Shown one piece after another: positions 1 through 26,504 of a DNA stretch of 32,000 nt. This DNA comes from Erysipelotrichaceae bacterium (GTDB taxonomy: Bacteria; Bacillota_I; Bacilli_A; Erysipelotrichales; Erysipelotrichaceae). Position numbers and translations under genes: made by a program. The notes under the pieces were generated by a model. The model saw only the letters and a list, made by a program, of their open reading frames with translations, had not been told where the DNA came from and made no database searches. The stretch is from the NCBI GenBank assembly GCA_963676105.1, contig OY781039.1:1620001-1652000 (forward strand), read 5' to 3'. Position 1 is the first letter of the stretch; every line of letters begins with the position of its first letter.

Positions 1-1090
1 TATCAAATAATTCACCAGTTAAGCGATGACCACCATAAGCTAGTTTTGCGCCTTCATCTAAACCAATTTGAATATAGTTTAAAACTGACTTCATTTGTTT
101 TTCACTGATTAAGGTAGCCATACGTGTATCTTCGTTTTCAGGTAAGCCAACCTTAACTTTCTTAAATATACTAATCATCTTTTCAAGTGTTTCTTCATAT
201 ATTGACTCATGAATAAAAACACGTGATCCTGCATTACATACTTGTCCTTGTCCATAAAGGATTCCTAGTACGGCACCTTCAACAGCTTTTTCCATTGGTG
301 CATCGGGGAAAAGAATATTCGCTGATTTTCCACCCAATTCAAGGGAAACGGGGATAACATTTTTAGAAGCTGTTTTCGCAATATTCATCCCAACACCTGT
401 TGATCCAGTAAAGGCAACTTTATTAATGTCAGGATGTTCAACCATTGACTGACCAACAACTGATCCTGCACCAGTGACAATATTAAATACACCAGCAGGA
501 ATAATATCTTGAGTAAGTTTCGCAAGTTCTAAAATAGAAACAGGTGTTAAGTCAGCTGGTTTCATGACAATCGTATTACCAGCTGCTAAAGCTGGGGCAA
601 TCTTCCATCCACCTAAAAGAAAAGGAAAGTTCCAAGGAATAATCTGCGCAACAACACCATAAGGTTCACGCATCACAAAAGCCATATTGTCTTGATCAAA
701 ACGTGTAAATGAATCTTCTTCAGCACGAACAAGGGCAGCAAAATAAGCAAATTGATCAGCAATAGCTTTAACATCTTCACGTGTTTCAACAATCGGCTTA
801 CCACTATCGAGCGTTTCTGTGTGGGCTAAATATTCTAAATTCACTTCGATGACATCTTTGATTTTGAGTAAGATAGTACTTCTTTCAATGGGTGTCGTTT
901 TCTTCCACACTTTAAAAGCCTTCCGTGCAGCTTTAACGGCTAGATCGACATCTTCACTTGTACCACGGTAAACTTTTGCGATTATTTCGCCCGTAGCAGG
1001 GTTTTTTACTTCTTCAGTTTCTTTTTTTACAGATGGAATAAATTCTCCACCAATAAAAACACCATATTCTTGATAGCTATATTTCATCAT
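1..1090 (-). CDS. NAD(P)+-dependent aldehyde dehydrogenase (partial; C-terminus lies beyond the window edge)
   Basis: Absent from the ORF track because it runs off the edge. My minus-strand translation from ATG 1090 gives MMKYSYQEYGVFIGGEF... with ALDH hallmarks PWNFP, ELGGKS (catalytic Glu) and GQGQVCNAGSR (catalytic Cys). The start overlaps the upstream stop as TAATG. Confidence 0.85.
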   Translation of the reverse strand, partial: MMKYSYQEYGVFIGGEFIPSVKKETEEVKNPATGEIIAKVYRGTSEDVDLAVKAARKAFKVWKKTTPIERSTILLKIKDVIEVNLEYLAHTETLDSGKPIVETREDVKAIADQFAYFAALVRAEEDSFTRFDQDNMAFVMREPYGVVAQIIPWNFPFLLGGWKIAPALAAGNTIVMKPADLTPVSILELAKLTQDIIPAGVFNIVTGAGSVVGQSMVEHPDINKVAFTGSTGVGMNIAKTASKNVIPVSLELGGKSANILFPDAPMEKAVEGAVLGILYGQGQVCNAGSRVFIHESIYEETLEKMISIFKKVKVGLPENEDTRMATLISEKQMKSVLNYIQIGLDEGAKLAYGGHRLTGELFD

Positions 1091-2709
1091 TAAACTCCTA
1101 ATTTCCAATCTTTAACATGGACTTCTATTAATGTTGGATAGTGTGTATTGAAAGCATCTTCACATGCTTTTTTAAACTCTGTTTTATTTGTTGGTCGAAC
1201 ACCTATCATTGAATAAGCTTCTGCTAATTTCATAAAGTTTAGTGGTGCACTATCAACTGCGATGAGTTGTTCAAAATCCATAGCTTGCTCATTGCGTTTG
1301 ATTTCACCATATCCATCATTGTTGAAAATGATAATTGGTAAGTTTTGTTTATTCTCACACGCAACAGCTAATTCTTGTAGCGTGAATTGGAAACCACCAT
1401 CACCACTAATCGTAATGATTCGTTTATCTTTTTGAGAAAACTTTGCGCCAACTGCAGCTGGCATGGAATAACCTAAAGTTCCAAATCCTGCAGGATGACA
1501 AAAACTTAAAGGGTGAGTACTTTTATATTCGCTAATGCCAATATAAGCAGGGCTACACATGTCGGCAAATAAATGGCCTTTTTCACCCAAGACTTCACTG
1601 ATGACGTCTAAGACTTCTACACCCATCTCAAAGCTTGTATGATTTCCACAGATATCTGAGGTAATGGCTTTAGTAGAATCCACTAAGTTTCTAACGGTAG
1701 ATTTTGTGTCTAAATTTTTAACGTTCACTTTATCTAAGATATAAGAGACAATCGTTTTCGCATCACCCAATAGACCAATATCAGCTTGTGGATATCGATA
1801 GAAGATATCTGCGTCTAGATCTATTTGAATGAGTTGTCCATTTAAGTTTAGTTTAGAATCCCATAAATCAGTAGGTGCTAATTGTGATCCAATTGCGATG
1901 ATTAGATCACAGTTATTAATATGTTCATTGACTAAAGGATAGTGTAAGCGTGCGCCTAAAGATAATGGATGATTATCAGATACAACCCCTTTACCTGCGG
2001 CGGTTGTGATCACTGCTGCATTTAATTTTTCAGCTAGCGCAGTGATTTCTTGTGAAGCATTGATTGCTCCGCCACCACAAATAATACAGATGTTTTGTTC
2101 GTTGTTAATTAAATTAATGGCATTATCTATATTTAATGGATTAAATGATGATTTTATCTTAAAGCTGTTTTCACTTAATTCATAATCAATGAATTGGTCT
2201 AAGATATCTAAAGGTATTTCAACATGAACCGGACCAGGACGTCCAGATAGTGATAGATGGTAGGCATCTTTAATAATCGATTCTATATGTTCAATTGATT
2301 CAATACTTCGTGACTCTTTGGTTACAGAGCTACTCATGATAGTTGAGTTTCTAAGTTCATGTAGAGTACCAGTATTTTGATTCTTAATATTAGTTGGCAA
2401 CTGTGTCGAGATGACCAACATCGCAACGCTATCTTGATAAGCTTGACCCATTGGGGTCATGATATTAGTTAACCCTGGACCAGTAATAGTAAGCGCAATG
2501 CCTACTTTATCTGAAATACGAGAATAGCCATCTGCCATAAAACCAGCGCCCGCTTCATTTTTAACAGTAACCGCATTGATCTTACTTTTAAGCAACGATT
2601 TATAGATTTTTAAATTATGTACACCAGGGATTCCAAAAAGGGTGTCTACCCCTAACTGTTCCAATGTTTGAACCAGTATATCGGCACCTGTTTTTTGTTT
2701 ATTATTCAT
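1090..2709 (-). CDS. Thiamine-pyrophosphate-dependent enzyme of the acetolactate-synthase-like superfamily (likely a 2-oxoacid decarboxylase; resembles the 5-guanidino-2-oxopentanoate decarboxylase/AruI-like subgroup from memory)
   Basis: ORF-track frame 1090..2736. The preferred start is ATG 2709 (MNNKQK...), 4 nt after AGGAGG (2714-2719). Motifs: GIPGVH, NEAGAGFMADGYSR, ITGPGLTN, MGQAYQDS, GTLHEL, and the C-terminal TPP motif GDGGFQF...NNDGYG. Confidence 0.8.
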   Translation of the reverse strand: MNNKQKTGADILVQTLEQLGVDTLFGIPGVHNLKIYKSLLKSKINAVTVKNEAGAGFMADGYSRISDKVGIALTITGPGLTNIMTPMGQAYQDSVAMLVISTQLPTNIKNQNTGTLHELRNSTIMSSSVTKESRSIESIEHIESIIKDAYHLSLSGRPGPVHVEIPLDILDQFIDYELSENSFKIKSSFNPLNIDNAINLINNEQNICIICGGGAINASQEITALAEKLNAAVITTAAGKGVVSDNHPLSLGARLHYPLVNEHINNCDLIIAIGSQLAPTDLWDSKLNLNGQLIQIDLDADIFYRYPQADIGLLGDAKTIVSYILDKVNVKNLDTKSTVRNLVDSTKAITSDICGNHTSFEMGVEVLDVISEVLGEKGHLFADMCSPAYIGISEYKSTHPLSFCHPAGFGTLGYSMPAAVGAKFSQKDKRIITISGDGGFQFTLQELAVACENKQNLPIIIFNNDGYGEIKRNEQAMDFEQLIAVDSAPLNFMKLAEAYSMIGVRPTNKTEFKKACEDAFNTHYPTLIEVHVKDWKLGV

Positions 2710-2735
2710 TTGACCTCCTAAAACAATACTATTCA

Positions 2736-2765
2736 ATTATAGCGTAGGGTCCTTTTAATTACCAA
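2736..2765 (-). promoter_or_regulatory. Putative sigma-A-type promoter of the TPP-enzyme/ALDH operon (AAATTGGTA - 18 nt - TATAAT)
   Basis: Minus strand reads CAAAATTGGTA ATTAAAAGGACCCTACGC TATAAT. The -10 is at 2736-2741 and the -35 at 2760-2765, about 25 nt upstream of the SD. Confidence 0.45.
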
Positions 2766-2881
2766 TTTTGAGGCGTTTGCATTTAGTTTATAAAGTCTTT
2801 AAGATGATAGTTAATGTTTAGACAATCATTGTAGTTATTAAACTTACATAAGATTGGTTTTTATATGAAAGGAATTGAATA

Positions 2882-3856
2882 ATGAAAATATTAATTTGTA
2901 GTTATGAAGAATTATTAAGCATGTATACGCCATATGCATTACAAGCGTTGAATGAGTATTTACCTGAAGCGGAAATAGTTGTTAGTCATTATACAGATGA
3001 AGCTAAGTTAATTTCGGACTTAAAGGATGTAGATGGATTAATAACTTTCTTTATTCCAATCACTCGTAAAGTAATAGCATCAACACAAATGTTAAAGTAT
3101 ATATCTGTTGCGAGTACAGGTTATTCTAATGTTGATATGGATGCTTGTAATGATTTCGATATAAAGGTTGCAAATATAAAAGAATATTGCACTGATGAAG
3201 TTGCAGATCATACGATGTCACTTATCTTAGCTTTAGCTAGAAAGATCACTGTTTTAAATGAACAAGTTAAGCAAGAACATATTTGGGACTATACAAGTGC
3301 CGGACAAATTCATCGTTTAAGTCAACATACATTAGGTTTATTTGGTTTTGGAAGAATTGGTCAAGCGGTTGCGAAACGTGCTAAAGCCTTTGGAATAAAG
3401 GTTATTGCCTTTGACCCCTATTTACCAGAAGAGATTGCGGCAGCACAAGAGGTTAAACTTGTGAGTGTTGAGACAATACAAGCTGAAGCAAGTATCATTT
3501 CTAATCATATGAATGCAAGTGATAAGAATACTGATTTCTTTAATGCTGATTTTTTTAAACATTGTAAACAAAAACCAATATTTATAAATGTAGGTCGTGG
3601 ACAAAGTGTTGATGAGGATGCCTTAATAGAAGCTTTAGATAAAGTATATATTCAAAGTGCAGGGTTAGATGTCTTTAAGTCTGAAGACCCTAATTTAAGT
3701 GAAATGAAACTAATTCAACATTCGCATACAATCGTGACTCCACATGCAGCTTTCTATTCGGAAGAAGCGATTGAAGATAGTGATCGTATATCTGTCATGA
3801 ATATGATTCATTCATTGAAAGATGAGCACGATAAAGTATTTGCATTTGTAAATTAA
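2882..3856 (+). CDS. D-isomer-specific 2-hydroxyacid dehydrogenase (NAD-binding)
   Basis: 324 aa. Rossmann motif GLFGFGRIGQAV. Catalytic Arg (NVGRGQSVD), Glu (GLDVF..E) and His (VTPHAAF) context. SD-like AAAGGAA upstream. Confidence 0.85.
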   Translation: MKILICSYEELLSMYTPYALQALNEYLPEAEIVVSHYTDEAKLISDLKDVDGLITFFIPITRKVIASTQMLKYISVASTGYSNVDMDACNDFDIKVANIKEYCTDEVADHTMSLILALARKITVLNEQVKQEHIWDYTSAGQIHRLSQHTLGLFGFGRIGQAVAKRAKAFGIKVIAFDPYLPEEIAAAQEVKLVSVETIQAEASIISNHMNASDKNTDFFNADFFKHCKQKPIFINVGRGQSVDEDALIEALDKVYIQSAGLDVFKSEDPNLSEMKLIQHSHTIVTPHAAFYSEEAIEDSDRISVMNMIHSLKDEHDKVFAFVN

Positions 3857-3867
3857 TAAACTTAAAA

Positions 3868-3894
3868 AAGGCTTAACCATTATGGTTAAGCCTT
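3868..3894. terminator. Bidirectional intrinsic terminator between convergent genes
   Basis: Perfect 11-bp stem AAGGCTTAACC / GGTTAAGCCTT with loop ATTAT. An A-run lies on one side and T-rich sequence on the other. Confidence 0.6.
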
Positions 3895-3898
3895 AAGT

Positions 3899-5137
3899 TT
3901 ATTTGGCTTTTTGAGCTTCTTTAATCTCTTCTTTATCTTCGACTGTTAATTCATCTTTATCAGCTAAAGCGGAAATAACGGATGCTTTGGAGATAATACC
4001 CATTAACTTATTATTTTTATCAACAACAGGTAGTGGATATGGATTATTAACTGATGGGGCTAGTGCATCATGGATAATTGTATCTAAGTCTAATGTTGTT
4101 AGATCTTTGATGAAAGTATCTTTGTTTAATACTTTATTATCCTTTTGTTTAGTTGCCTCATCTAAAGTAATGATACCTTCAAGTTCCATGTCTGCATTAA
4201 CAACGTAAGCAGAGGATACTTGGTTAACTTTCATTTCCTGAATAGCACGTTTAGGTCCATCACCGTATTTTAGAATACAGCTAGGTGTCATCATGATATT
4301 TTGTACTGTGACAATCTTAGTGATATCAGCACCTTCTACGAAGTTCTCTACATACTCATCAGCAGGATTTGTTAACATATCCTCTGGTGTGTCAATTTGA
4401 ATGACTTGACCATCACGCATAATCGCAACACGGTCACCTAATTTAAAAGCTTCGTTTATATCATGAGTAATGAAGATAATTGTTTTCTTCATTTTTTGTT
4501 GAATTTTTAAGAGTTCAAATTGCATATCTCTTTTAACAAGTGGATCTAAGGCAGAGAATGGTTCATCCATTAGTAGAATCTCAGGATCGTTAGCTAAAGC
4601 TCTGGCAAGACCAACACGTTGTTTCATCCCACCTGATAATTGTGAGATTTGGTATTGATCAAATCCTTTTAGACCAACGAGTTCAATCATTTCTAATGAC
4701 TTCTTTTCACGCTCTTCTTTAGAAGTGCCTTTTATTTCAAGACCAAGAGCTACATTATCCATAACAGTACGATGTGGAATTAAACCGAAATGTTGGAAAA
4801 CCATCGCAATTTTATTACGTCTGAAATCCATAAGCTCTTGTTTAGTATACTTTTGAACGTTGTCACCTTCGTAGTGAACTGAACCTTCACTTGGAACGTT
4901 AAGTCCATTGAAACATCTAACTAATGTGGATTTACCAGAACCGGATAATCCAATGATGACAAACATTTCGCCTTTTTTAACTTCAAAATTTACGTTATTT
5001 AAGGCAACGTTACAGCCTGTTTTATCTAAGATTTCTGATTTTTTAGCACCTTTTTTAATCATGGCCTTCGCTTTTTCTTTGTTTGGACCATAGAACTTAA
5101 ATAGGTTTTCTACGCGTAAATAAGTTTGCTTACTCAT
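3899..5137 (-). CDS. opuAA: Glycine betaine/proline betaine-type ABC transporter ATP-binding protein with C-terminal tandem CBS domains
   Basis: 412 aa. Walker A GLSGSGKST, signature LSGGMKQRV, Walker B LLMDEPFSALD, ITHD. The C-terminal ~130 aa is CBS-like and followed by a charged tail. ATGA overlap with the upstream permease gene. Confidence 0.9.
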   Translation of the reverse strand: MSKQTYLRVENLFKFYGPNKEKAKAMIKKGAKKSEILDKTGCNVALNNVNFEVKKGEMFVIIGLSGSGKSTLVRCFNGLNVPSEGSVHYEGDNVQKYTKQELMDFRRNKIAMVFQHFGLIPHRTVMDNVALGLEIKGTSKEEREKKSLEMIELVGLKGFDQYQISQLSGGMKQRVGLARALANDPEILLMDEPFSALDPLVKRDMQFELLKIQQKMKKTIIFITHDINEAFKLGDRVAIMRDGQVIQIDTPEDMLTNPADEYVENFVEGADITKIVTVQNIMMTPSCILKYGDGPKRAIQEMKVNQVSSAYVVNADMELEGIITLDEATKQKDNKVLNKDTFIKDLTTLDLDTIIHDALAPSVNNPYPLPVVDKNNKLMGIISKASVISALADKDELTVEDKEEIKEAQKAK

Positions 5138-6003
5138 GCATTATCCTCCTGACTAGCTTCAATTTTTGACCAACCTTGGCTTAAACGGTCAAGAAGAATT
5201 GCGATAATAACAACAGCTGTACCGGAAACAAGTCCGCGTCCAACTTCGATACGGTTAACAGAAATTAAGACTTCCATACCTAAACCAGTAACACCAATCA
5301 TTGATGTTGTGACAACCATAGACATAGCCATCATGATGGTTTGGTTAACACCCGCCATAATGGTTGGGAAGGCTTGTGGAATTTTAACTTTAACTAAAGC
5401 TTGCATTTGAGTAGCCCCAAATGAATGGACCGCTTCAACTAATTCTTTATCAACTTGTCTGATACCTAAGTCAGTTAATCGAATAATTGGAACAATCGCA
5501 TAAATGGTTGTTGCGAGTGTACCTGGCACTCGACCTAAACCAAATAGGATAATAGCCGGAATAAGGTAAACAAAGACTGGCATCGTTTGCATAGTATCTA
5601 AGATTGGTCGAATGACATTAGACAATCGATCAGATAGAGCCATTAAGACACCGATTGGGAATCCTAGTAATAAGGATAAGAACACAGCAGCCAAGATAAT
5701 GGCTAGGGTTGTGATCATTAGGTCCCATAGACCAACTAAACCAATAAGAAATAATAATAAGCTATACAGTGTGGCGGTTAAAAATTTCTTCGTCTTCATA
5801 AACATAAGCACAAATACAAATACAATATATACCCACCACGGAATAAATTGGAGTATGTTACCGATGCTTGTTAACCAGAAATTAAGGATATCTCTAATAA
5901 TACTTAAGATCCAGTCAGCATCTCTAGCGAATTGTCTAAATGCTGTGTCAATTGCGCCAGTGTTGATTTCAACCACAAATGGAAAATCAAAAAATGGATT
6001 CAT
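5134..6003 (-). CDS. opuAB: Glycine betaine/proline betaine-type ABC transporter permease
   Basis: 289 aa, multi-pass hydrophobic. ProW/OpuAB-like N-terminus and an EAA-like loop (VDKELVEAVHSFGAT). Translationally coupled to opuAA. Confidence 0.9.
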   Translation of the reverse strand: MNPFFDFPFVVEINTGAIDTAFRQFARDADWILSIIRDILNFWLTSIGNILQFIPWWVYIVFVFVLMFMKTKKFLTATLYSLLLFLIGLVGLWDLMITTLAIILAAVFLSLLLGFPIGVLMALSDRLSNVIRPILDTMQTMPVFVYLIPAIILFGLGRVPGTLATTIYAIVPIIRLTDLGIRQVDKELVEAVHSFGATQMQALVKVKIPQAFPTIMAGVNQTIMMAMSMVVTTSMIGVTGLGMEVLISVNRIEVGRGLVSGTAVVIIAILLDRLSQGWSKIEASQEDNA

Positions 6004-6076
6004 TTATTTTCTCTCTCTTTCTCTAAATTAATTTACATAGGACAAACAAAAAGTTGTTTTTACAAACCTTCTTTGT

Positions 6077-6121
6077 CTTATCAGATGATTAAATCTGCCA
6101 ACGTATACATCTATTTTAACA
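6077..6121 (-). promoter_or_regulatory. Extended -10 promoter (TGTTAAAAT) plus conserved inverted repeat for the permease/ATPase operon
   Basis: Minus strand: TGTTAAAAT (6113-6121), 10 nt, then GTTGGCAGAT-TTAATC-ATCTGATAAG (6102-6077). The same element occupies the same position in the three binding-protein genes. Confidence 0.4.
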
Positions 6122-6202
6122 AAATTGCCTTTTTTAAGCGAATACCCATAAAATATGGACACATACTTAAAGGTAGTTTTGTGAAACTAGATGGATGCCT
6201 TA

Positions 6203-6243
6203 AACAAAAGAAAACGGCGTATAAGACATTCTCAAACGCCGTT
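6203..6243 (-). terminator. Rho-independent terminator of binding-protein gene 1
   Basis: Minus strand: AACGGCGT - 15-nt loop - ACGCCGTT followed by TTTCTTTTGTTT. Confidence 0.7.
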
Positions 6244-6263
6244 AATCTAAAACTAAGTTTTAC

Positions 6264-7256
6264 TTATTCAGCTAACGCAGCAAATAATGTTTCTGCATCT
6301 TCTGCAGGTAACATAGCAGCAATTAAATCTTGGTTTTCCATAATAAACCATTTAGCTGTAGTTACATAATCAGCACCAGTTTCTTGCATATAAGCAAGGG
6401 CATTTGATGTTAATTGAGAAGATGTTGTGTAATTACCTAAGAATGCATCTAGTTCTGGGTTATCATCAGCAAATCCAACACGTGTACATACTGTAACGTT
6501 GTTTGAAGGAATTTCATTTAGACCAGCTAGATAGTCTTCGTTTGTTGTATATGGATCATCTTCTAGAAGTGTTAAGTCATACATACCAGTAACCCATGTT
6601 GGTTCCCAGTAGTAAGCAACAAATGCATTACCAGCTTCATATTGAGCTGAGATATTAGCAGCTAAAGCTGAGTCAGAACCAGGTGTGAAACCAACATAGT
6701 AATCAGTTAAACCATAAGCTTCTAATTTTGCTTTTAAGATTTCATTAACTTGCCATCCAGGGATTGCTAAGTAAATAGTACTCTTAGTAGGATCTTCATC
6801 ACTAGCTTCGAATAAATCAGCGTAGTTTGCTAAGTCTTTAACAGTTTTAAGATCTGGTGCTAAAGCATCATCACCTTCAACTAAATATGTAGGTACGTAT
6901 AATCCTTGAGCGTTATCAGCAAAGTTAGTACCTTTTTCGATAATATCACCGTTAGCGATTAAATCAGGATATTGAGCAATACCATCTGACCATGTTTCTG
7001 TATAAACATCAATCTCACCACTTCTCATACCTTCGATAGTGATGTTTGTTGAACCAGGAACTTCTTCCCAAGTTGTGTTGTAGAGTGTTTCACCTACAAG
7101 ACCAACAACTGCATTGTGGAATCGAACACTATCCCATCCTGGATCAGCAAGGACAATATGTCTTTCTTCCATTGTTTCGCCTTCTTCTGATGGCGCGCTA
7201 GAACAACCAGTTAAAACTAGTAGTCCTAAAATTAAAACAACTAAAAAACGTTTCAT
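6264..7256 (-). CDS. ProX/OpuAC-family (betaine-type) substrate-binding lipoprotein, paralog 1
   Basis: 330 aa. Signal peptide with lipobox LVLTGC. Trp-box context ETWSD / IPGW / YYWEPTW, resembling E. coli ProX aromatic-cage positions. AGGAGG SD. Confidence 0.9.
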   Translation of the reverse strand: MKRFLVVLILGLLVLTGCSSAPSEEGETMEERHIVLADPGWDSVRFHNAVVGLVGETLYNTTWEEVPGSTNITIEGMRSGEIDVYTETWSDGIAQYPDLIANGDIIEKGTNFADNAQGLYVPTYLVEGDDALAPDLKTVKDLANYADLFEASDEDPTKSTIYLAIPGWQVNEILKAKLEAYGLTDYYVGFTPGSDSALAANISAQYEAGNAFVAYYWEPTWVTGMYDLTLLEDDPYTTNEDYLAGLNEIPSNNVTVCTRVGFADDNPELDAFLGNYTTSSQLTSNALAYMQETGADYVTTAKWFIMENQDLIAAMLPAEDAETLFAALAE

Positions 7257-7273
7257 TAAGAACCTCCTATTTT

Positions 7274-7341
7274 GTTATCAGATTATAAAAAACCTGCCAA
7301 CTTCTGACACTATTATACCGAAAATAAAGCATAAATGCCAA
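7274..7341 (-). promoter_or_regulatory. Promoter (AAATTGGCA - 18 nt - TATAAT) and 5'-proximal inverted repeat of paralog 1
   Basis: The -35 is at 7336-7341 and the -10 at 7312-7317. Inverted repeat GTTGGCAGGTT-TTTTAT-AATCTGATAAC at 7301-7274 ends 5 nt before the SD. Confidence 0.5.
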
Positions 7342-7420
7342 TTTCACCATGTACACGGATACGGGTGGGCCCTTTTAAGCTAGGTTCTATAAGGTTTATT
7401 AGTGAATAAAAAAATTTCAC

Positions 7421-7467
7421 AAAATTATTAAAAAAGATGCTTTATAGATTAAATCTCAAGCATCTTT
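7421..7467 (-). terminator. Rho-independent terminator of binding-protein gene 2
   Basis: Minus strand: AAAGATGCTT - loop - AAGCATCTTT followed by TTTTTAATAATTTT. Confidence 0.7.
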
Positions 7468-7492
7468 GACTATAAATTCAATAAAAAATTAA

Positions 7493-8509
7493 TTAGTTGA
7501 GTGAACTAATAACCACTTCAGCATCTTCTGCAGGCAACCAAGCTTCAACTAAATCAGTGTGTTGAGCTAAAAACCATTTTGCTGTTTCAACATAATCTGA
7601 ACCTGTATCTAACATGTAAGCCAAAGCTTCAGATGTCATTGCACTATTAGTACCATACTTACTTAAGAATGCATCGAGTTCAGTATTTTCTTCGGCAAAT
7701 CCATCACGTACCGCTAAGGTTACATTACTTGTAGGCCAATCTCCAATACCATCTTGGAAAGTATCAGCATTAAATGGCTCGTCATTGGTTAAACGAACAA
7801 AGTCATATTTACCAATTAACCATGTTGGTTCCCAATAGTAACCAACAATTGGCTCTCCAGCTTCATAAGCTTCAGTAAACATTGCAGCTAGAGCAGCATC
7901 TGATCCAGGTGCGAAATATTCAAATGGTTCACCTTCATCGTTACCATCAGTGTTTGCTAAACCATAATATTCAGTTTGATTACGTAGAATATTGTCAGCC
8001 ATCCAACCAGGGATTGCTCCATAGATTCGACCCATTCCCTCAATATCAGGATTCTCAAAAACATCAACATAATTCAGTAAGTCTTGAATTGTTTCAAGAT
8101 CTGGTGCTAATGCTTCAATACCTCTTTCTTCATCACCTTCAATGACATAGCGGGGAACATAAAGACCTTGGATAGCATCGCCAAAGTTAACACCTTTTTC
8201 GTCGATTGCACCAGAAGCTTTATCTTCTTCGTAAGTTGCGATATTGTCAGTCCAGATTTCTGTGTAGACATCAATGTCACCAGTTTTTAATGCTTCATAA
8301 GTAATGGTTGAAGAGCCTGGTACTTCCTCCCATGTATAGTTATAAGCAGTTTCTGCAATATAACCAACGACAGCGTTGTGGAATTTAATACTATCCCAGT
8401 TGGCGTCTGCCATTTTAATGTGTCCACCTGTTTCTTCAGCAGGAGCGCTAGAACAGCCTGTTAAAGCAAGCATTGCTAAGAAAGGTAAAACTAAAAAACG
8501 TTTCTTCAT
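7493..8509 (-). CDS. ProX/OpuAC-family substrate-binding lipoprotein, paralog 2 (most divergent)
   Basis: 338 aa. Lipobox LALTGC. The same Trp-box context (EIWTD / IPGW / YYWEPTW). GGAGG SD. Confidence 0.9.
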   Translation of the reverse strand: MKKRFLVLPFLAMLALTGCSSAPAEETGGHIKMADANWDSIKFHNAVVGYIAETAYNYTWEEVPGSSTITYEALKTGDIDVYTEIWTDNIATYEEDKASGAIDEKGVNFGDAIQGLYVPRYVIEGDEERGIEALAPDLETIQDLLNYVDVFENPDIEGMGRIYGAIPGWMADNILRNQTEYYGLANTDGNDEGEPFEYFAPGSDAALAAMFTEAYEAGEPIVGYYWEPTWLIGKYDFVRLTNDEPFNADTFQDGIGDWPTSNVTLAVRDGFAEENTELDAFLSKYGTNSAMTSEALAYMLDTGSDYVETAKWFLAQHTDLVEAWLPAEDAEVVISSLN

Positions 8510-8527
8510 AAAAGAACCTCCTTCTTT

Positions 8528-8594
8528 GCTATCAGATTATAAAAAACCGTCAAACAGTACCTTTATGTTAACAGTAAAAATGATTAAATACCAA
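8528..8594 (-). promoter_or_regulatory. Promoter (AAATTGGTA - 18 nt - TAACAT) and degenerate copy of the 5' inverted repeat of paralog 2
   Basis: The -35 is at 8589-8594 and the -10 at 8565-8570. Element GTTTGACGGTTTTTTATAATCTGATAGC at 8555-8528. Confidence 0.4.
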
Positions 8595-8691
8595 TTTATA
8601 TGTCTAATTTATCAATTACACGGATGCGGGTGGGTCCAAAATATCGCTTTGCAAAGGGCTAAAATTCAGTTTGTATAAAATTTACAAAAAA

Positions 8692-8736
8692 TAAAAAAAT
8701 CGGCGTTAGAGCGTTGGCAAAACTCTAATCACCGAT
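8692..8736 (-). terminator. Rho-independent terminator of binding-protein gene 3
   Basis: Minus strand: ATCGGTGATTAGAG - loop - CTCTAACGCCGAT (one bulge, one G-U) followed by TTTTTTTATTTTTT. Confidence 0.7.
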
Positions 8737-8774
8737 TGATATATTAGACACTTTTTCAAGTGATCTAAACAGTT

Positions 8775-9755
8775 TTATTCAATAGCTGCAAAGAGTGCTT
8801 CTGCATCTTCAGCTGGTAACATACTAGAAATTAAATCTTTGTTTTGAATCATAAACCAGACAGCTGTGTCCTCATAATTAGCACCAGTGTCTTGCATATA
8901 AGCAAGTGCGTTAGATGTTAATTGAGATGAAGTTGTGTAATTACCTAAGAAGGCATCCATTTCTGGATTATCATCCGCAAAGCCTGCACGTGTACATACA
9001 GTAACGTTCATTGATGGAATTTCATTGATTCCGTTGTAGTAATCTTCTTCATTTGTATAAGGTGTATCTTCTAAAAGAACTAAATCATATTTGCCTGTGA
9101 CCCATGTTGGTTCCCAGTAATAAGCTACAAATGGTTCACCTGCTTCATAGAAAGCAGTGATATTAGCGGCTAGTGCTGAATCTGAACCAGGGCTCATGTA
9201 GTTATAGAATTCATCTAAACCATAAGCCACCATTTTGGCATTTAAGACTTCATTGACTTCCCAACCTGGGATTGCTAAGTAGATCATGCCTTTTGTAGGA
9301 TCATCTGGATCTTCAAAAACATTGGCATATTCTTTTAAGTCCATAACTGTTTTAAGGTCTGGTGCTAATGCGTCATCACCTTCAACAATATATGCGGGGA
9401 CATATAAGCCTTGAGCGTTATCATCAAAGTTTGTACCTTTTTCGATAATTTCACCATTAGCAACTGCATCTGCATATGGTGCGATACCATCTGACCATGT
9501 TTCTGTGTAAACATCAATTTCTCCAGATTTAAGTGCTTCAAATGTGATCGCAGTTGACCCCGGGACTTCTTCCCAAGTGGTGTTGTATAAGACTTCCGCA
9601 ACTTTACCAACGACAGCGTTATGGAATCGTACACTATCCCATCCTGGATCAGCTAAGACGATATGTCTTTCTGGCATTTCTTCTTCAGCTGGTGCACTTG
9701 AACAACCACTTAAAATTAGTAGCCCAAAAAGCGCAATACTTAAAAAACGTTTCAT
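8775..9755 (-). CDS. ProX/OpuAC-family substrate-binding lipoprotein, paralog 3
   Basis: The ORF-track frame extends to 9860, but the lipoprotein signal MKRFLSIALFGLLILSGC starts at ATG 9755 behind GGAGGG (9763-9768). By eye it is about three-quarters identical to paralog 1. Confidence 0.9.
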   Translation of the reverse strand: MKRFLSIALFGLLILSGCSSAPAEEEMPERHIVLADPGWDSVRFHNAVVGKVAEVLYNTTWEEVPGSTAITFEALKSGEIDVYTETWSDGIAPYADAVANGEIIEKGTNFDDNAQGLYVPAYIVEGDDALAPDLKTVMDLKEYANVFEDPDDPTKGMIYLAIPGWEVNEVLNAKMVAYGLDEFYNYMSPGSDSALAANITAFYEAGEPFVAYYWEPTWVTGKYDLVLLEDTPYTNEEDYYNGINEIPSMNVTVCTRAGFADDNPEMDAFLGNYTTSSQLTSNALAYMQDTGANYEDTAVWFMIQNKDLISSMLPAEDAEALFAAIE

Positions 9756-9774
9756 TAAAAAACCCTCCATTTCG

Positions 9775-9846
9775 ATTGTGAGATTATGTGTTAAAAACCT
9801 GCACAAATATGAGTTCATTTTACTGAAGAATTTAACAGAAAACCAA
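9775..9846 (-). promoter_or_regulatory. Promoter (AAATTGGTT - 18 nt - TAAAAT) and 5' inverted repeat of paralog 3
   Basis: The -35 is at 9841-9846 and the -10 at 9817-9822. Element TTGTGCAGGTT-TTTAACACAT-AATCTCACAA at 9806-9775. Confidence 0.45.
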
Positions 9847-9892
9847 TTTGAACAAGCCAAAAGAACTTGTATAGCACTATTTTGAATGGTAA

Positions 9893-9916
9893 CTACCCAT
9901 ATATATATATGGGTAG
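9893..9916. repeat. Perfect 24-bp palindrome CTACCC(AT)6GGGTAG in the divergent intergenic region
   Basis: Read directly: CTACCCATATATATATATGGGTAG. No flanking T-run on either strand. Confidence 0.9.
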
Positions 9917-10037
9917 AAAATTCTTTATGAAAATTGTGTGAAGAAGTCTGGTTTGCACACTATTTAGGGCTTTATTCATCCATTTGACTAAGATGAAAAT
10001 TTCATGAGAAAAAGTTCACAAATACAACTAGTTTCAT

Positions 10038-10065
10038 TGTTTGTTAGTAGGGGAAATGCTATAAT
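10038..10065 (+). promoter_or_regulatory. Putative extended -10 promoter of pgk operon
   Basis: TGCTATAAT (10057-10065) with a weak -35 TTGTTT. AGGAGG SD at about 10080 and ATG at 10096. Confidence 0.4.
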
Positions 10066-10095
10066 ATTGTGGAACTTTAGGAGGATTAAAATTAG

Positions 10096-11291
10096 ATGGC
10101 GAAACGCACTGTTAAAGATCTAGCGGTTAAAGGAAAAAAAGTAATCGTTAGAGTCGATTTTAATGTGCCATTAAAAGATGGTGTCATTACTGATGAGAAT
10201 CGTATTGTACAAGCTTTACCTACTATTAATTATTTAGTAGAAGAAGGCGCAAAAATTATTCTATTATCACACTTAGGAAAAGTGGATCATAAAGATCCTG
10301 AAAAAACAGAAGCTAATAAAAAGAAAAACAACATGGCTCCTGTTGCCGCTAAGTTAGCTGAAAAAGTAGATACAAAAGTTACATTCGTAGCTGAAACACG
10401 TGGTGAAGCAGTTGAAAAAGCTGTGGCAGATTTGAAAGATGGTGAAATCGTCGTTCTTCAAAACACACGTTATGAAAAAGGTGAAAGCAAGAATGATCCT
10501 GAATTGTCAGCATACTGGGCAAGTTTAGGTGATTTATTTGTGACTGATGCATTTGGATCAGTTCACAGAGCTCATTCAAGTACTGTAGGTATTGCTTCAA
10601 TCTTACCAAATGCATTAGGTTTCTTAGTTGAGAAAGAAGTAAACCAATTATCAAAAGCTGTTTATAACCCAGAACGTCCATTCGTGGCGATTCTTGGTGG
10701 ATCAAAAGTAAGTGATAAGATTCCTGTTATTGAAAACTTATTAACTTCTGCTGACAAAATCTTAGTTGGTGGTGGTATGGCTTTCACATTTGCCAAAGCT
10801 CAAGGTTTAGAAATCGGTTCATCTTTATTAGATGAAGCATCACTTGAACTTACTAAAAAATTCATGGCTGAAGGTAAAGACAAAATTGTATTACCTGTAG
10901 ATTACATGGTTGCAGATAAATTTGCAGAAGATGCTGATCACTACGTTGTTGATGCAGACAAAATTCCTGCAGGTTATATGGGTTTAGATGTTGGTCCTAA
11001 AACTTTAGAATTATTCTCTAAAGAATTAGCTGGTGCTAAAACAGTTGTTTGGAATGGCCCTATGGGTGTATTCGAAATGAAACCTTATGCTGCTGGAACA
11101 ATCGGTGTATGTGAAACATTAGCAAATATGAAAGATGCCTTCACTGTTATCGGTGGTGGTGATAGTGCTGCAGCTGCAAACCAAAATGGTTTCTCTGAGT
11201 CTTTTTCACACATCTCAACAGGTGGTGGTGCATCACTTGAATTTATGGAAGGAAAAGAATTACCTGGTATTGCGGTAATTCAGGAAGCATA

Positions 11292-16247: not shown

Positions 16248-16272
16248 CCTAGGGTAAAACCTAGGTTTTTAT
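16246..16272 (+). terminator. Rho-independent terminator after smpB
   Basis: AACCTAGG-GTAAAA-CCTAGGTT followed by TTTTAT. Confidence 0.75.
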
Positions 16273-16305
16273 ATAACTTATAAATAATTAAAGTAAAATA
16301 AGTTT

Positions 16306-16728
16306 ATGAGTACAGAAAACATTCCAAATTTTAAAACCGTCACCCATCAAAATTGTTTTGATATGGGGACACTTGCACTTCGACTTGTCAAAGAAAGACA
16401 ACTTAGAAGAATCGGGGTTAGAGTTACCCTAGAAGATAAACTCGTTTTTCAATACTTAATGGATGGTAAAAATGAAGACATCTATTTAAGAGGAAAAGAA
16501 AAAGTTGTGTTAGAAACTAAACACAGTTCAGATTATGTCTTTAATCATAAAGATGATTACGCTGCTTTATTAGATGATAAATCTTACTGCGTAAGTGGTG
16601 GCTCAGTACCGATTATTATCAATGGTGAAGTTAAAGGATCCATCAGTATTTCAGGTATGACGCAAGAAGCAGATCATGCATTAAGCTTAGAAGTATTAAA
16701 TACAATTTTTAATCAAACTCAGGAGTAA
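16306..16728 (+). CDS. Heme-degrading-domain / UPF0303 (GlcG/DUF336-like) protein
   Basis: 140 aa. C-terminal SGGSVPIIINGEVKGSISISGMTQEADH resembles the GlcG/HbpS-like fold signature. No SD. Confidence 0.65.
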   Translation: MSTENIPNFKTVTHQNCFDMGTLALRLVKERQLRRIGVRVTLEDKLVFQYLMDGKNEDIYLRGKEKVVLETKHSSDYVFNHKDDYAALLDDKSYCVSGGSVPIIINGEVKGSISISGMTQEADHALSLEVLNTIFNQTQE

Positions 16729-16732
16729 TATT

Positions 16733-22816: not shown

Positions 22817-23833
22817 ATGAAAAAATCTTTAATTCTACTTATCACAAGTTCTATGTTTTTAAGTTCTTGTTCACTCTTTACTAAAGAAAAAATTGATCAG
22901 CTAACGATCGCGATATCTCCCGTCGCAATACCGGGTGATATTTTAGAGTCTTCTATATCTTTTTCAGATGATCTTCGTAGCTATTTATTTGATAAAGGTT
23001 ATGATGTTCAAAACTTAAATGTTGAAGTCTTTGATACGCATGAAGAAACTCGGTTAAGTGTTGTTGATGGAACAGTAGACATAGCATATCTACCTGTACT
23101 TCAATATTTAAAAGTCATAGAAGAAGTGGATTATATGGCAAGCATTACAAGTCCACAACTTGATATGGGGACTGAGCCAAGTGTTTATAACGATATTACT
23201 TCAAGCACAAAACCAATTTCTGATTTATCTTATCGAAATGCTTTAATCTATACGGGTCCATCAGAATATGGACAAGAGCTTTATTCTAAGTTTGTTAATA
23301 ATCAAACCATTACTTGGATTGATGTGAATGTGGCGAGTTGGTGTCATGTGGTTGTGACTAGTTTAGATGGTTATGTCATGCCAAGTCTTTGGTTAATTGA
23401 TGAATATGATCGTCGTATAGGTGAACTCTTTGATCATACATTAGAGGTAAGAGGTTATGAGGATGTCGTTAAATCGTTGGCTAGTCAAGATTGTGACATT
23501 GCGGTTGGTCCTAGTTTACTAAGATATGATTATGAAGATTTATGGAATACTGAAGATTATGGTGGTCAAAATAATATCTTTGATGATGTAAATGTCATTG
23601 GTGTAACGCAGCCTATTTATGACGATGTCTTTGTGAGTCGTAAGTTAGCTGAAGAAGATGATGAATTAAGTGCAGAGTTTATGGCTTTAATTCAAACATT
23701 CTTAGTTGAGAAAGTTGAAGAAAACCCAGAACTCTATCAAGTGCTGGGCTTTAGTGGAATTGATATCTTAGATAAAACTTTCTATGAAACAATGATTCCT
23801 GCTTTAGAATATGTAGAACGCATCATGTCCTGA
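22817..23833 (+). CDS. PhnD-like (phosphonate-type) ABC substrate-binding lipoprotein, orphan paralog
   Basis: 338 aa. Lipobox FLSSC. Shares blocks with the 25470 protein (YRNALIYTGPSEYG, ITWIDVN, GYVMPSLWL, QDCDIAVGP, VIGVTQPIYDD). TATAAT lies 7 nt before the ATG and there is no SD. Confidence 0.75.
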   Translation: MKKSLILLITSSMFLSSCSLFTKEKIDQLTIAISPVAIPGDILESSISFSDDLRSYLFDKGYDVQNLNVEVFDTHEETRLSVVDGTVDIAYLPVLQYLKVIEEVDYMASITSPQLDMGTEPSVYNDITSSTKPISDLSYRNALIYTGPSEYGQELYSKFVNNQTITWIDVNVASWCHVVVTSLDGYVMPSLWLIDEYDRRIGELFDHTLEVRGYEDVVKSLASQDCDIAVGPSLLRYDYEDLWNTEDYGGQNNIFDDVNVIGVTQPIYDDVFVSRKLAEEDDELSAEFMALIQTFLVEKVEENPELYQVLGFSGIDILDKTFYETMIPALEYVERIMS

Positions 23834-23846
23834 TGCGTTTTTTTCT
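23817..23846 (+). terminator. Rho-independent terminator overlapping the end of the orphan PhnD-like gene
   Basis: AACGCATCA-TGTCC-TGATGCGTT followed by TTTTTTC. Confidence 0.7.
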
Positions 23847-25352
23847 TTACTTAATGATTTTAATATTTTCTTTATGATTAATTTTTACAGGTGTATTTTT
23901 TTGGATATACTCCGCAATTAAATCAGTCATATCTAATGGTAATTCAGTCACTGTAATCGCTTCAGGAATCATATTAAAGTTACCGCCACCACTTGCACGA
24001 TAATTATTCATGACAATCGTGTAGTAATCATGATCAACCAAGTCTTCTCCATTGATTTTAGCTTCAATGAGACGTTTACCAATTGGATTAGAAATCTTAT
24101 AGGTATAATCTATACCATCCAACATATCGTAATTAAAGTGTTGTGGTTTAGGTTTGGCATATTCTGGTGTCACAATAATCTCATTATCTTTAATTGAGAA
24201 GTATTTTGCGTTTTGTTCAAGATAAGCTTTTATTGCTCTGCCAGTCATTTTCTTAACCACTAAACTATTTGGATAAACATAGTTATTTACAATATCACGC
24301 ATACGAATGTTTTGAGGGAAACCGAGTGGTTGGTTAAATAATGCTGTTGCGCTAATTTGAGCCATCGTGAAATTAAATTGAACTTGATTCAAAAATGAGA
24401 CCATTGGATGTTTATGTAAACGTGCTTCAAAAGGATCATTCACCAAACAATCTTCTTCTAATGTGCCGATGATGGTATCTAACCATCTATTAACATTTTC
24501 CTCAAATGGTTCGATGAGATTCTCGATTTCTTGATCAAATTCAACATCAGCCATACTGACAAGTTTAGCTTCTAGTTTTTTATCAATGATATCTACCTGC
24601 ATGATTTCAGAAGCATTCATTGCGGATTGAAGAAATAGGGTGTTATTGATAACTGTGTTGATTGATCGATGTTGATGCCCAGAGATGATCACATCAATGC
24701 AATCAATTTGCGCAAGTTCATAACCTACGTTTTCACCCGTTAAGGTTTCAGTAGGGATGCCTGTTTCAGGATCTTTTTCTAGACCACCATGATAGATGAC
24801 AAAAACGAAATCGACATTTTCTTTAAGTTCACAGACTTCTTTCTTAACCACTTCAATAGGATTTAAGAAAGTGAAATGTTTAATGTTTTCGGGTCTTTCC
24901 CAATGAGGGATATAATCAGTGACAACTCCGATTAAACCTATTTTAGTCCCATCATTGAATTGTTGGATTTGACTACTTCCAATTGGAATATCTTTATAGA
25001 GTACATTGCTGGTGATACATGTTGCCCCTAAATCATCTAGGAATTGATGCAATATTTCTTCACCATAATTGAAATCATGGTTACCAACGTTAGTATACAT
25101 ATATTCCATTTCATTCATGACTAACGCTAGTAGATTGGGTGATAGCTTGTTGTTGTGGGAATAGGTTAAAAGTGGACTTCCTTGAAGACTATCTCCATTA
25201 TCACAAAGTAAAACTTCATGTGTTTTTTCAAGTTCTTTTAAATAAGTAGAAACACGAGAAAGCCCATTTAAGTTAAGTTCATTATTGATGGATGATTTGG
25301 CTGATATTGTCCCATGAATATCAGTTGTAAATACACAAGTTTTGTTAAGCAT
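23847..25352 (-). CDS. Bifunctional metallophosphatase/5'-nucleotidase family protein (CpdB/UshA-like), no signal peptide
   Basis: 501 aa. Metallophosphoesterase motifs TDIHG, GDSLQGS, GNHDF, GHQH, plus a 5'-nucleotidase C-terminal-like half. No N-terminal hydrophobic leader. Confidence 0.85.
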   Translation of the reverse strand: MLNKTCVFTTDIHGTISAKSSINNELNLNGLSRVSTYLKELEKTHEVLLCDNGDSLQGSPLLTYSHNNKLSPNLLALVMNEMEYMYTNVGNHDFNYGEEILHQFLDDLGATCITSNVLYKDIPIGSSQIQQFNDGTKIGLIGVVTDYIPHWERPENIKHFTFLNPIEVVKKEVCELKENVDFVFVIYHGGLEKDPETGIPTETLTGENVGYELAQIDCIDVIISGHQHRSINTVINNTLFLQSAMNASEIMQVDIIDKKLEAKLVSMADVEFDQEIENLIEPFEENVNRWLDTIIGTLEEDCLVNDPFEARLHKHPMVSFLNQVQFNFTMAQISATALFNQPLGFPQNIRMRDIVNNYVYPNSLVVKKMTGRAIKAYLEQNAKYFSIKDNEIIVTPEYAKPKPQHFNYDMLDGIDYTYKISNPIGKRLIEAKINGEDLVDHDYYTIVMNNYRASGGGNFNMIPEAITVTELPLDMTDLIAEYIQKNTPVKINHKENIKIIK

Positions 25353-25380
25353 ATGTAAATTATATCAAGGCATTGAAAAC

Positions 25381-25408
25381 TTGTATAAAGAAATGCGCAA
25401 TTTATACT
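25381..25408 (+). promoter_or_regulatory. Putative promoter of phnDCEE (TTGTAT - 16 nt - TATACT)
   Basis: Read directly. About 60 nt upstream of ATG 25470. Confidence 0.4.
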
Positions 25409-25469
25409 TTAGTACTATATAAAAAGTGCTATGCTAGATATGTAATTATTTAATTACAGGAGGAAAATA

Positions 25470-26504
25470 ATGAAAAAGTTTTTAGCTGTGTTGATGCTTT
25501 CTCTTCTTGTATTAGGTGGACTAACTGCATGTTCATCTGAGCCTGCTGAAGAAGAAGTCACAACGATCTCAGACCTAGTTGTTTTATTTGTTCCTAGCCG
25601 TGACCCTGGTCTTATCCAAGAAGCGACTGAACCTCTAAAACAAATGTTAATCGATAGTTTAGCTACAAAAGGCTTCACTGTTGAAAATGTAACCATCGAA
25701 GTTACAACAGATTACAATGCTGCTGGTGATGCACTTGCTGCTGGTACTGCACAAATTGGTTTCTTACCAGGTGGTACATATGTTGCATACTCCGAAGACG
25801 GTGTTGAAGTAGTCTTAGCTGCTACACGTGCTGGCTTAAATAAAGACAGCGAAAATCCAGTAGACTGGAATGATGGATTACCAACTGAAGGTGATTCAGA
25901 AAATCAAGTTACTTACTATCGTTCATTAATTTATGCTGGACCAAGTGAATATGGTCGTACATTAGCTGATAAAGTGAACAGTGGTGAAGCTTTAACTTGG
26001 GATGATGTTAATGCTGCACAATGGTGTGTATCTAACTCATCTACTTCATCTGCAGGTTATGTTTACCCAACAATGTGGTTAATGGATAACTTCGGTATGA
26101 AAATCACTGATTTAGAAAACTCACCACTACTTGGTGGTTATGGTGATATCGCTGCTAACCTCGCAACAGAACAATGTGATATTGGTGTTGGTTATGCTGA
26201 TATTCGTCGTGACTATGATGAAAACTGGGTTGGAGAATGGGAACGTACTGAAGATATCTGGAATGAAACAGATGTTATCGGTGTAACTCAAGGTATCTTT
26301 AACGATACAATCTCTGTAAGCTTAAATCACCCAGACATGAGTGATGCATTAAAAGTTGCTATCCAAGAAGCATTTATTGAAATTGCTCAAACTGAAGCTG
26401 GTGCTGAAGCAATCGCTATTTATAATCACGAAGGTTACAAAGTTGTAACAGATTCTGATTATGATGGTGCTCGCGCTGCACGTGATATTGTACAAGGTAG
26501 TTAA
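25470..26504 (+). CDS. phnD: Phosphonate-type ABC transporter substrate-binding lipoprotein
   Basis: 344 aa. Lipobox LTAC, PhnD-like blocks, strong AGGAGG SD. First gene of a phnC/phnE-containing operon. Confidence 0.8.
   Translation: MKKFLAVLMLSLLVLGGLTACSSEPAEEEVTTISDLVVLFVPSRDPGLIQEATEPLKQMLIDSLATKGFTVENVTIEVTTDYNAAGDALAAGTAQIGFLPGGTYVAYSEDGVEVVLAATRAGLNKDSENPVDWNDGLPTEGDSENQVTYYRSLIYAGPSEYGRTLADKVNSGEALTWDDVNAAQWCVSNSSTSSAGYVYPTMWLMDNFGMKITDLENSPLLGGYGDIAANLATEQCDIGVGYADIRRDYDENWVGEWERTEDIWNETDVIGVTQGIFNDTISVSLNHPDMSDALKVAIQEAFIEIAQTEAGAEAIAIYNHEGYKVVTDSDYDGARAARDIVQGS

Follow-up and report, generated by a model that had tools for sequence, protein, structure and literature searches.

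A betaine-type importer beside a 2-hydroxyacid dehydrogenase, an AruI-like decarboxylase and an aldehyde dehydrogenase: a possible uptake-and-conversion module for small organic cations

Why should an importer of the betaine type, equipped with three binding proteins, be located next to three enzymes of 2-oxoacid chemistry? The question is raised by a stretch of 32,000 nucleotides from an Erysipelotrichaceae bacterium (contig OY781039.1, positions 1,620,001 to 1,652,000), here called the window. At its beginning are the genes for an aldehyde dehydrogenase (ALDH), a thiamine-diphosphate (TPP) enzyme, a D-2-hydroxyacid dehydrogenase, and the ATPase, the permease and three binding proteins (SBP1 to SBP3) of an ATP-binding cassette (ABC) importer. 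A first-pass annotation of the bare sequence had predicted these eight genes, and all were found at or near their predicted positions. It had read the enzymes as a coherent chain from hydroxy acid through oxo acid and aldehyde to carboxylate. The conservation of the linkage across phyla speaks for such a chain; the uncertain direction of the dehydrogenase weakens it. With moderate confidence we propose that the locus serves to take up and convert a small organic cation with a 2-hydroxy acid (or 2-oxo acid) end.

In the order of reactions that we infer, the OpuA-type ABC importer with its three aromatic-cage lipoprotein receptors would take up a compound headed by a trimethylammonium or dimethylsulfonium group. 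The D-2-hydroxyacid dehydrogenase would oxidise C2 to give the 2-oxo acid, the AruI-like TPP enzyme would release C1 as CO2, and the translationally coupled ALDH, which resembles betaine aldehyde dehydrogenases (BADH), would turn the omega-onium aldehyde into a carboxylate one carbon shorter. The product would be a solute of the betaine or dimethylsulfoniopropionate (DMSP) type, with two NAD(P)+ reduced in the course of the two oxidations. Most other lineages would feed the same core through a HisC-like aminotransferase, the matching amino acid taking the place of the hydroxy acid.

Is the pairing of enzymes and importer more than an accident of one genome? Homologs of the TPP enzyme were gathered from 80 genomic loci, their flanks were annotated by BLASTP against the window proteins and by gene clustering, and Pfam-annotated contigs were added to this neighbourhood set. 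Homologs of at least 39% identity (24 non-redundant loci) are here called the clade; a distant set comprises 58 relatives at 33-38% identity, mostly from Proteobacteria. Within the Bacillota the clade extends over Erysipelotrichaceae, Eubacteriaceae, Clostridiales and Fusibacter. Beyond them it is present in Synergistota (Thermovirga, Acetomicrobium, Aminobacteriaceae), in Spirochaetia and on one Desulfobacteraceae contig. A PF04069 binding-protein gene lies within 10 kb of the TPP gene in 21 of the 24 clade loci versus 1 of the 58 distant relatives. Because Fisher's exact test returns p = 2e-15, chance is excluded for the linkage as a class. A ProV-like ATPase together with a permease is encoded nearby in 20 of the 24 loci, a HisC-like aminotransferase in 19, and a dehydrogenase of the window subfamily in six. 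The aldehyde step is represented by an ALDH in 11/24 and by a tungsten-type aldehyde:ferredoxin oxidoreductase (AFOR) in 4/24. The usual gene order is TPP enzyme, aminotransferase, ATPase, permease and binding protein, with the ALDH or AFOR last. Eubacteriaceae ES3 has, in this order, the genes for TPP enzyme, ALDH, binding protein, permease and ATPase running in one direction, and those for the dehydrogenase and a GntR regulator diverge from them.

The adjacency is conserved in relatives from several phyla, as the first-pass annotation had anticipated. The decarboxylase cluster recruited PF04069 transporters on at least three separate occasions, which would be difficult to account for if there were no functional link. 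Importer and decarboxylase are found together in no fewer than three further bacterial phyla, so that the cluster looks like a genuine conserved pathway. In the searchable literature no account of it turned up, neither of the cluster nor of the candidate chemistry, in agreement with the first-pass annotation, to which no pathway of this composition was known.

Distant TPP relatives occur in contexts which, judged by their gene content, again appear to involve onium chemistry. In Chromohalobacter canadensis (L081, 7125-13779) a distant TPP homolog is accompanied by a GbdR-like regulator, a PF04069 binding protein, an aminotransferase, TmpA (449 bits, above the cut-off) and a TmpB-like HD-domain protein. 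In two marine Gammaproteobacteria (L052, 9998-16472; L086, 6093-14126) the genes that come after the TPP enzyme and a 2-hydroxyacid dehydrogenase encode a Gate-domain transporter and a Rieske oxygenase, the latter with a weak best match to GbcA. L052 has an additional reductase gene; L086 has additional genes for succinate-semialdehyde dehydrogenase and gamma-aminobutyrate (GABA) transaminase.

Which reaction does the TPP enzyme catalyse? Its gene (1093-2709, minus strand) encodes 539 amino acids in a three-domain architecture (PF02776, PF00205 and PF02775 were all found). The best NCBIfam family is NF005712, the AruI-type 5-guanidino-2-oxopentanoate decarboxylases, with a full-length match (5-536 of 536) of 478.1 bits; the next-best family scores 360 bits, 118 behind. 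The biosynthetic acetolactate synthase family IlvB (TIGR00118) is matched with 325.7 bits at a cut-off of 538, the catabolic AlsS families TIGR02418 and NF006378 with 221.5 and 240.4 bits at cut-offs of 551 and 510, and the pyruvate oxidase family with 218 bits. Xsc, oxalyl-CoA decarboxylase and IpdC are absent from the best 25 of the 54 families that match the enzyme, and neither alsD nor a small-subunit gene adjoins the TPP gene in the window. An acetolactate synthase identity is ruled out by these scores. The expectation that the enzyme would stand apart from the catabolic acetolactate synthases was borne out.

Is it then a true AruI? In an ordinary arginine-type route 2-ketoarginine, supplied by arginine, D-arginine or argininic acid, would be converted to 4-guanidinobutyrate. 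The best family match fits such a route, the sources name many of the homologs (41-54% identity), clade members among them, 5-guanidino-2-oxopentanoate decarboxylase, and KauB is among the structural relatives of the ALDH. In the distant relatives from rhizobia and Roseibium an aminotransferase gene is located directly upstream of the TPP gene, an order which we take to resemble the aruH-aruI arrangement, and the GABA transaminase and succinate-semialdehyde dehydrogenase genes of L086 would also suit an arginine route. However, the score remains under the curated cut-off (478 versus 500 bits), a shortfall that burdens our own proposal as well. Identity between the clade and the proteobacterial enzymes is only 33-38%, fixed residues (S122 for Q, E394, W283) set the clade apart from them, and the aminotransferase of the clade resembles HisC rather than AruH. 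In the Pfam-annotated clade loci, where no dedicated search was made, a gene of the arginase family (guanidinobutyrase) was not noticed, nor did the clustering of the 24 loci bring out any other shared gene family of such a size. Further, the characterised ligands of aromatic-cage PF04069 systems named in the sources are quaternary ammonium or sulfonium compounds. Because of the aromatic cages, the lack of a noticed arginase-family gene and the lack of a further shared family we regard the plain arginine route as quite improbable.

The ALDH gene (1-1090, minus strand) is cut off by the window edge after its first 363 codons. The protein matches PF00171 (E 6e-121) and keeps the catalytic Glu (ELGGKS) and Cys (GQVCNAG). 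The TPP stop codon TAA overlaps the ALDH start codon ATG by one base (TAATG; GGAGTTTAATGATG at 1085-1098), with an AGGAG ribosome-binding site; the overlap described in the first-pass annotation is confirmed. The ALDH shares 89.5% identity with its 490-aa counterpart in the relative L001. The relative's full-length enzyme scores 544 bits against the BADH family TIGR01804, below the cut-off of 668.6, and ExaC is level at 543.6. The window ALDH is best described as a predicted BADH/ExaC-like member of the ALDH superfamily. Searches of solved structures returned only generic relatives, for the TPP enzyme without any AruI structure and for the ALDH with KauB included, and are uninformative on substrate.

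What does the importer bind? The ATPase (3899-5137, minus strand) is of the ProV/OpuAA type (TIGR01186, 410 bits, cut-off 326.6) and has a C-terminal CBS domain (PF00571, residues 344-392) and a charged tail. The permease of 289 amino acids (5134-6003, minus strand) is of the ProW/OpuAB type; its best matches, ChoW with 255 and ProW with 239 bits, are below the cut-offs of 363 and 439 and denote a family-level relationship only. SBP1 (6264-7256), SBP2 (7493-8509) and SBP3 (8775-9755), all on the minus strand, are PF04069/OpuAC lipoproteins (E 4e-42 to 6e-45) with the lipoboxes LTGCSS, LTGCSS and LSGCSS. SBP3 had been extended to 9860, where the open reading frame has its mechanical TTG start; translation probably begins with the ATG at 9755, after GGAGGG. 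SBP3 is 76% identical to SBP1, and SBP2 is a divergent paralog (52-54% to the other two) with no counterpart in the closest relative, L002. W41, W89, W168 and Y215-Y216-W217-E218-P219 are invariant in the three proteins and in two distant enzyme-linked homologs, and SBP1 shows the cage of four Trp and a Tyr. The Trp motifs noted earlier are real, save that the second paralog has EIW in place of ETW. The ligand-contacting position after a cage Trp differs among the three: Q, M and E.

The closest solved structure is that of the DMSP-binding protein DmpX (7YLE, E 1.6e-19). The DMSP pocket of RnDmpX is formed by W35, T64, W84, E113, W152, A153, Y200 and W202 (PMC10030565). Six of these eight residues, the four Trp, Tyr200 and Thr64, are kept in the window proteins; opposite E113 the alignment has a gap, and Q, M or E stands in place of A153. 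These matches indicate an importer of the betaine/proline/choline family (OpuA/ProU type), the binding proteins of which have a predicted aromatic onium cage. Each curated threshold or defining residue set is missed, so that for none of the cluster proteins can membership of the AruI, AlsS, BADH or DmpX equivalog families be demonstrated.

Several observations weigh against the proposed module, and a first group of them concerns the importer. When an alignment of the binding proteins was run against metagenome contigs, 80 loci at 43-53% identity were retrieved, almost all of them SBP-ProW-ProV operons, in some of which the binding protein is fused or occurs in tandem. In 0 of these 80 loci does the TPP enzyme or the ALDH stand beside the homologous binding-protein gene. 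In a neighbour-joining tree the three window proteins nest inside the unlinked clade, and the enzyme-linked binding proteins of ES3 and Spirochaetia form a separate lineage. The cage residues are the same in enzyme-linked and in unlinked proteins. Because of this nesting and the alike cage positions the window importer is best regarded as a generic OpuA-type system and not as a lineage that co-evolved with the enzymes; it could be a general osmoprotectant system. The exact arrangement of the window is shared by only two closely related genomes, and the transporter is a separate transcription unit behind a bidirectional intrinsic terminator with a 12-bp stem (3868-3894), which separates the dehydrogenase gene from the ATPase gene. 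The TPP and dehydrogenase genes also evolve much faster than the transporter.

Accordingly one might picture an importer for glycine betaine, DMSP or choline that is here incidentally adjacent to an unrelated pathway of a possibly uncharged 2-oxo acid. In the genome of the window itself chance may still account for the linkage, because the transporter belongs to a generic lineage. Against this stand the 21 of 24 clade loci with a PF04069 transporter, distributed over distant phyla and at least three unrelated lineages, which make coincidence unlikely, and a promoter-like signature common to the TPP and binding-protein genes. All told, we consider an incidental adjacency improbable.

The first-pass annotation had claimed such a shared promoter signature. 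The motif AAATTGG-N17-19-TAnAAT is indeed common to the upstream regions of TPP, SBP1 and SBP3, with 4 matches versus 0.18 expected. The promoter-like site of the TPP-ALDH operon (2736-2768, minus strand) consists of AAATTGGTA, an 18-nt spacer and TATAAT, and its core is kept in the relative. Upstream of SBP1 (7258-7344, minus strand) a promoter-like TTGGCA-18-TATAAT is followed by the leader TTGGCAGGTTTTTTATAATCTGATAA; the site of SBP3 (9817-9849, minus strand) comprises AAATTGGTT, a spacer and TAAAAT. The SBP1 leader is repeated before SBP2 (8512-8555) and before the permease gene (approximately 6080-6110), and more weakly before SBP3 (approximately 9770-9800). Each SBP gene and the permease gene has its own promoter-like region with the leader element TTGGCAG...TATAATCTGATAA. 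This leader is confined to the transporter genes and is missing from the enzyme promoters, another point on the debit side. Co-regulation of enzymes and transporter is conjectural. Directly upstream of the -35-like AAATTGG of SBP1 and SBP2 (7332-7372 and 8597-8637, minus strand) lies a GC-rich element, GGGCCCACCCGTATCCGTGTA, which stands out in a genome of 35% GC and is kept in the relative in the version CACCCGTATCCGTGT; it may be a regulator site.

How strongly are the genes held? Compared with the relative, housekeeping proteins are 92-97% and transporter proteins 94-98% identical; the values are 89.5% for the ALDH, 78% for the TPP enzyme and 73% for the dehydrogenase (window 1093-3856 versus L002 8844-11620). 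Synonymous divergence (dS) is higher in the enzyme genes, about 1.4 versus 0.2-0.8. The ratio of non-synonymous to synonymous divergence (dN/dS) is 0.02-0.11 for all genes, the TPP gene having 0.11 against the relative. All cluster genes are under purifying selection. The enzyme genes are functional, though under weaker constraint.

Does the pathway begin with a hydroxy acid or with an amino acid? The dehydrogenase (2882-3856, plus strand, 324 amino acids, CtBP/short-PGDH-like) carries PF00389 and PF02826 and, in its translation, the motifs GFGRIG (GxGxxG), GRG and TPH. It reaches no equivalog cut-off, the best being phosphoglycerate dehydrogenase (PGDH) with 195 versus 454 bits; by domains and motifs it is predicted to be a D-isomer-specific 2-hydroxyacid dehydrogenase. 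Its gene diverges from the TPP-ALDH operon and converges with the five-gene transporter block. Orthologs adjoin the TPP cluster in L004 (ES3), L087 (a Spirochaetia metagenome-assembled genome, MAG) and the Bacillota loci L008, L088 and L173. All loci which have at least one further cluster gene and lack the aminotransferase possess the dehydrogenase (the window, L002, L004, L087, L026); in L018 the TPP gene is alone. L008, L088 and L173 have both enzymes, and their dehydrogenases are the closest homologs of the window's outside the Erysipelotrichaceae (56-57% identity). The entry enzyme alternates: it is either a HisC-like aminotransferase or a D-2-hydroxyacid dehydrogenase.

The receptor type alternates as well. 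A binding protein of the OpuBC/OpuCC type is encoded in 18 clade loci, and 18/18 also carry the aminotransferase. These proteins have a best structure match of E 2e-58, and their cage, formed by W71, Y117, Y197 and Y221, is unchanged in 18/18. In dehydrogenase-only loci with a detectable binding protein this belongs to the DmpX-like PF04069 lineage; in L026 none was detected. The best argument that the imported compound would here be a hydroxy acid rather than an amino acid is that the receptor type co-varies with the entry enzyme.

The second group of adverse observations concerns the dehydrogenase. Its subfamily is abundant in Clostridia, often bears the name 'C-terminal binding protein' and is often found beside aminotransferases. 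In Clostridium tyrobutyricum the homolog adjoins two aminotransferases and a DDAH/ADI-family gene. In a 525-aa protein (P0196; L169, 886-2463) a class I/II aminotransferase is fused to a dehydrogenase of the window subfamily (49% identity); the neighbours of its gene are Peptidase_M20 and FmdA/AmdA genes. The dehydrogenase may also run reductively; the reduction of a 2-oxo acid fits as well as the oxidation of a hydroxy acid. For this reason a fermentative dismutation is kept as the main rival. A cationic amino acid would be imported and transaminated by an enzyme encoded elsewhere; one 2-oxo acid would be reduced to the D-2-hydroxy acid, with the dehydrogenase reversed as a redox valve, and another would be decarboxylated and oxidised. 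The aryl-lactate and aryl-acetate branches of amino-acid fermenters are a model for such a dismutation. The carriers are anaerobic fermenters, the aminotransferase is adjacent in 19 of the 24 clade loci, and the three loci with the closest dehydrogenase orthologs contain it too. On the other hand, no aminotransferase is located within 10 kb in the five dehydrogenase-only loci, and there the type of binding protein, where detectable, also switches, suggesting a chemically different ligand. We judge the dismutation rather unlikely.

If the uptake-and-conversion module is accepted, which cation might it serve? To judge by the aromatic cages, it would carry a methylated ammonium or sulfonium head. 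Candidate substrates are the D-isomer of 4-dimethylsulfonio-2-hydroxybutyrate (DMSHB) or S-methylmethionine, which would yield DMSP, and acids of the trimethyllysine type, which would yield delta-valerobetaine; no hard evidence ranks them. Homologues of other chain lengths and guanidino acids are further candidates. The products proposed in the first-pass annotation, glycine betaine or gamma-butyrobetaine, are likewise candidates at most. More tentatively, we suggest that this cluster and its aminotransferase relatives could constitute an O2-independent route, common among anaerobes, by which methylated onium amino or hydroxy acids are converted to omega-onium carboxylates such as DMSP or delta-valerobetaine. 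A histidine/imidazole-lactate reading was considered because the aminotransferase scores at the HisC level; the four-sided onium cage speaks against it and it is disfavoured. A sulfonate route (sulfolactate/cysteate) is ruled out, as decarboxylase and transporter are of the wrong families. An esterase of the Abhydrolase_3/BD-FAE type adjoins the aminotransferase clusters of three Bacillota loci (L003, 14385-15383; L088, 1-314; L173, 12264-13214), and its recurrence hints that the natural substrate may come as an ester.

Beyond 10096 the window continues with pgk, tpi, eno, rnr and smpB. The closest genome, the Erysipelotrichaceae MAG OY760660.1, has the same cluster at the same site beside pgk but with two binding-protein genes. 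Neither Rfam (E-value mode for 1-10200, gathering mode for the whole window) nor ARAGORN detected a riboswitch or RNA gene; this includes a gap of approximately 480 nt after smpB (16248-16732) where a tmRNA gene might be looked for. A phosphonate-type ABC system is located at 22817-28977. Its two PhnD-like binding-protein genes (22817-23833 and 25470-26504) flank a 5'-nucleotidase/metallophosphoesterase gene on the opposite strand, followed by the genes for an ATPase and two permeases and then by two GntR-like genes (29079-30579).

What would follow if the proposal were confirmed? A conserved cluster in several phyla would link the uptake of onium compounds to an AruI-like decarboxylase, and the name '5-guanidino-2-oxopentanoate decarboxylase' would have to be corrected for many homologs in anaerobes. 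Candidate genes would be at hand for conversions that are chemically known but have no bacterial genes assigned to them: the formation of DMSP from S-methylmethionine or DMSHB in marine and saline sediments, and the O2-free formation of valerobetaine from trimethyllysine in guts and digesters. If true, bacteria would have genes of their own for the steps from S-methylmethionine to DMSP-aldehyde and from DMSHB to DMSP, or there would be an anaerobic source of the gut-derived metabolite delta-valerobetaine. Cultured carriers are Thermovirga lienii, Alkalibacter rhizosphaerae, Fusibacter paucivorans and Eubacteriaceae ES3.

To which known systems can the cluster be compared? By analogy it would work like the AruH-AruI-KauB and Ehrlich-type routes, coupled to uptake in the manner of the choline-to-betaine modules. 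In Pseudomonas aeruginosa AruH, AruI and KauB, an aminotransferase, a 2-ketoarginine decarboxylase and an aldehyde dehydrogenase, produce 4-guanidinobutyrate. The logic from amino acid through 2-oxo acid and aldehyde to a carboxylate shortened by one carbon, with a cationic side chain, is the same; the window TPP enzyme is closest to the AruI subfamily, and the window ALDH is related to KauB. In contrast to that system, the clade enters through a D-2-hydroxyacid dehydrogenase or a HisC-like aminotransferase, not through AruH, it is tied to betaine-type ABC importers, and none of the neighbourhoods examined gave any sign of a guanidinobutyrase. The sub-threshold family score and the distance to the proteobacterial homologs also set it apart, and its hosts are anaerobes, some of which use a tungsten-type AFOR at the aldehyde step.

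The modules which convert choline to glycine betaine (GbsB/GbsA in Bacillus subtilis, BetA/BetB in E. coli, fed by OpuB/OpuC or BetT) likewise have an importer that supplies the precursor and a BADH-like ALDH that makes the final onium carboxylate. The CBS domain and charged tail of the window ATPase are like those of the osmoregulated OpuA of Lactococcus lactis. The window differs in that a decarboxylation would be inserted and the precursor would be a 2-hydroxy or 2-amino acid one carbon longer, not an alcohol; neither an alcohol dehydrogenase nor a choline oxidase is encoded in the cluster. The Ehrlich and indole-3-pyruvate routes (IpdC/KdcA type) employ the same enzyme classes, with a 2-hydroxyacid dehydrogenase at the 2-oxo acid node, whereas the window decarboxylase belongs by family score to an acetolactate-synthase-like, three-domain AruI lineage, and its clade is tied to onium importers. 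Compared with DmpXWV and the OpuA of Lactococcus/Bacillus, the window binding proteins keep the four Trp, Tyr200 and Thr64 of the DMSP pocket of DmpX, their closest solved structure; the match to DmpX is distant, however, Glu113 is missing, Ala153 is exchanged, and three tandem paralogs, Gram-positive lipoproteins, serve one transporter core.

Finally, two biosynthetic routes have the proposed conversions as their net result. For plants and algae the steps from S-methylmethionine to DMSP-aldehyde and DMSP, and from DMSHB to DMSP, have been given by enzyme class with the genes unnamed (PMC5395565). The window trio, or its aminotransferase variant, would carry out exactly these conversions, but the carriers of the clade are heterotrophic anaerobes, not DMSP producers, and a sulfonium substrate is a candidate only. 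The DavB/DavA oxygenase route from trimethyllysine to delta-valerobetaine is the only bacterial route named in the report on it (PMC11773067). If the window substrate were trimethyllysine, the net conversion would be the same; DavB is a monooxygenase that needs O2 and the route proceeds via an amide, whereas the window cluster would be O2-free and consists of unrelated enzymes.

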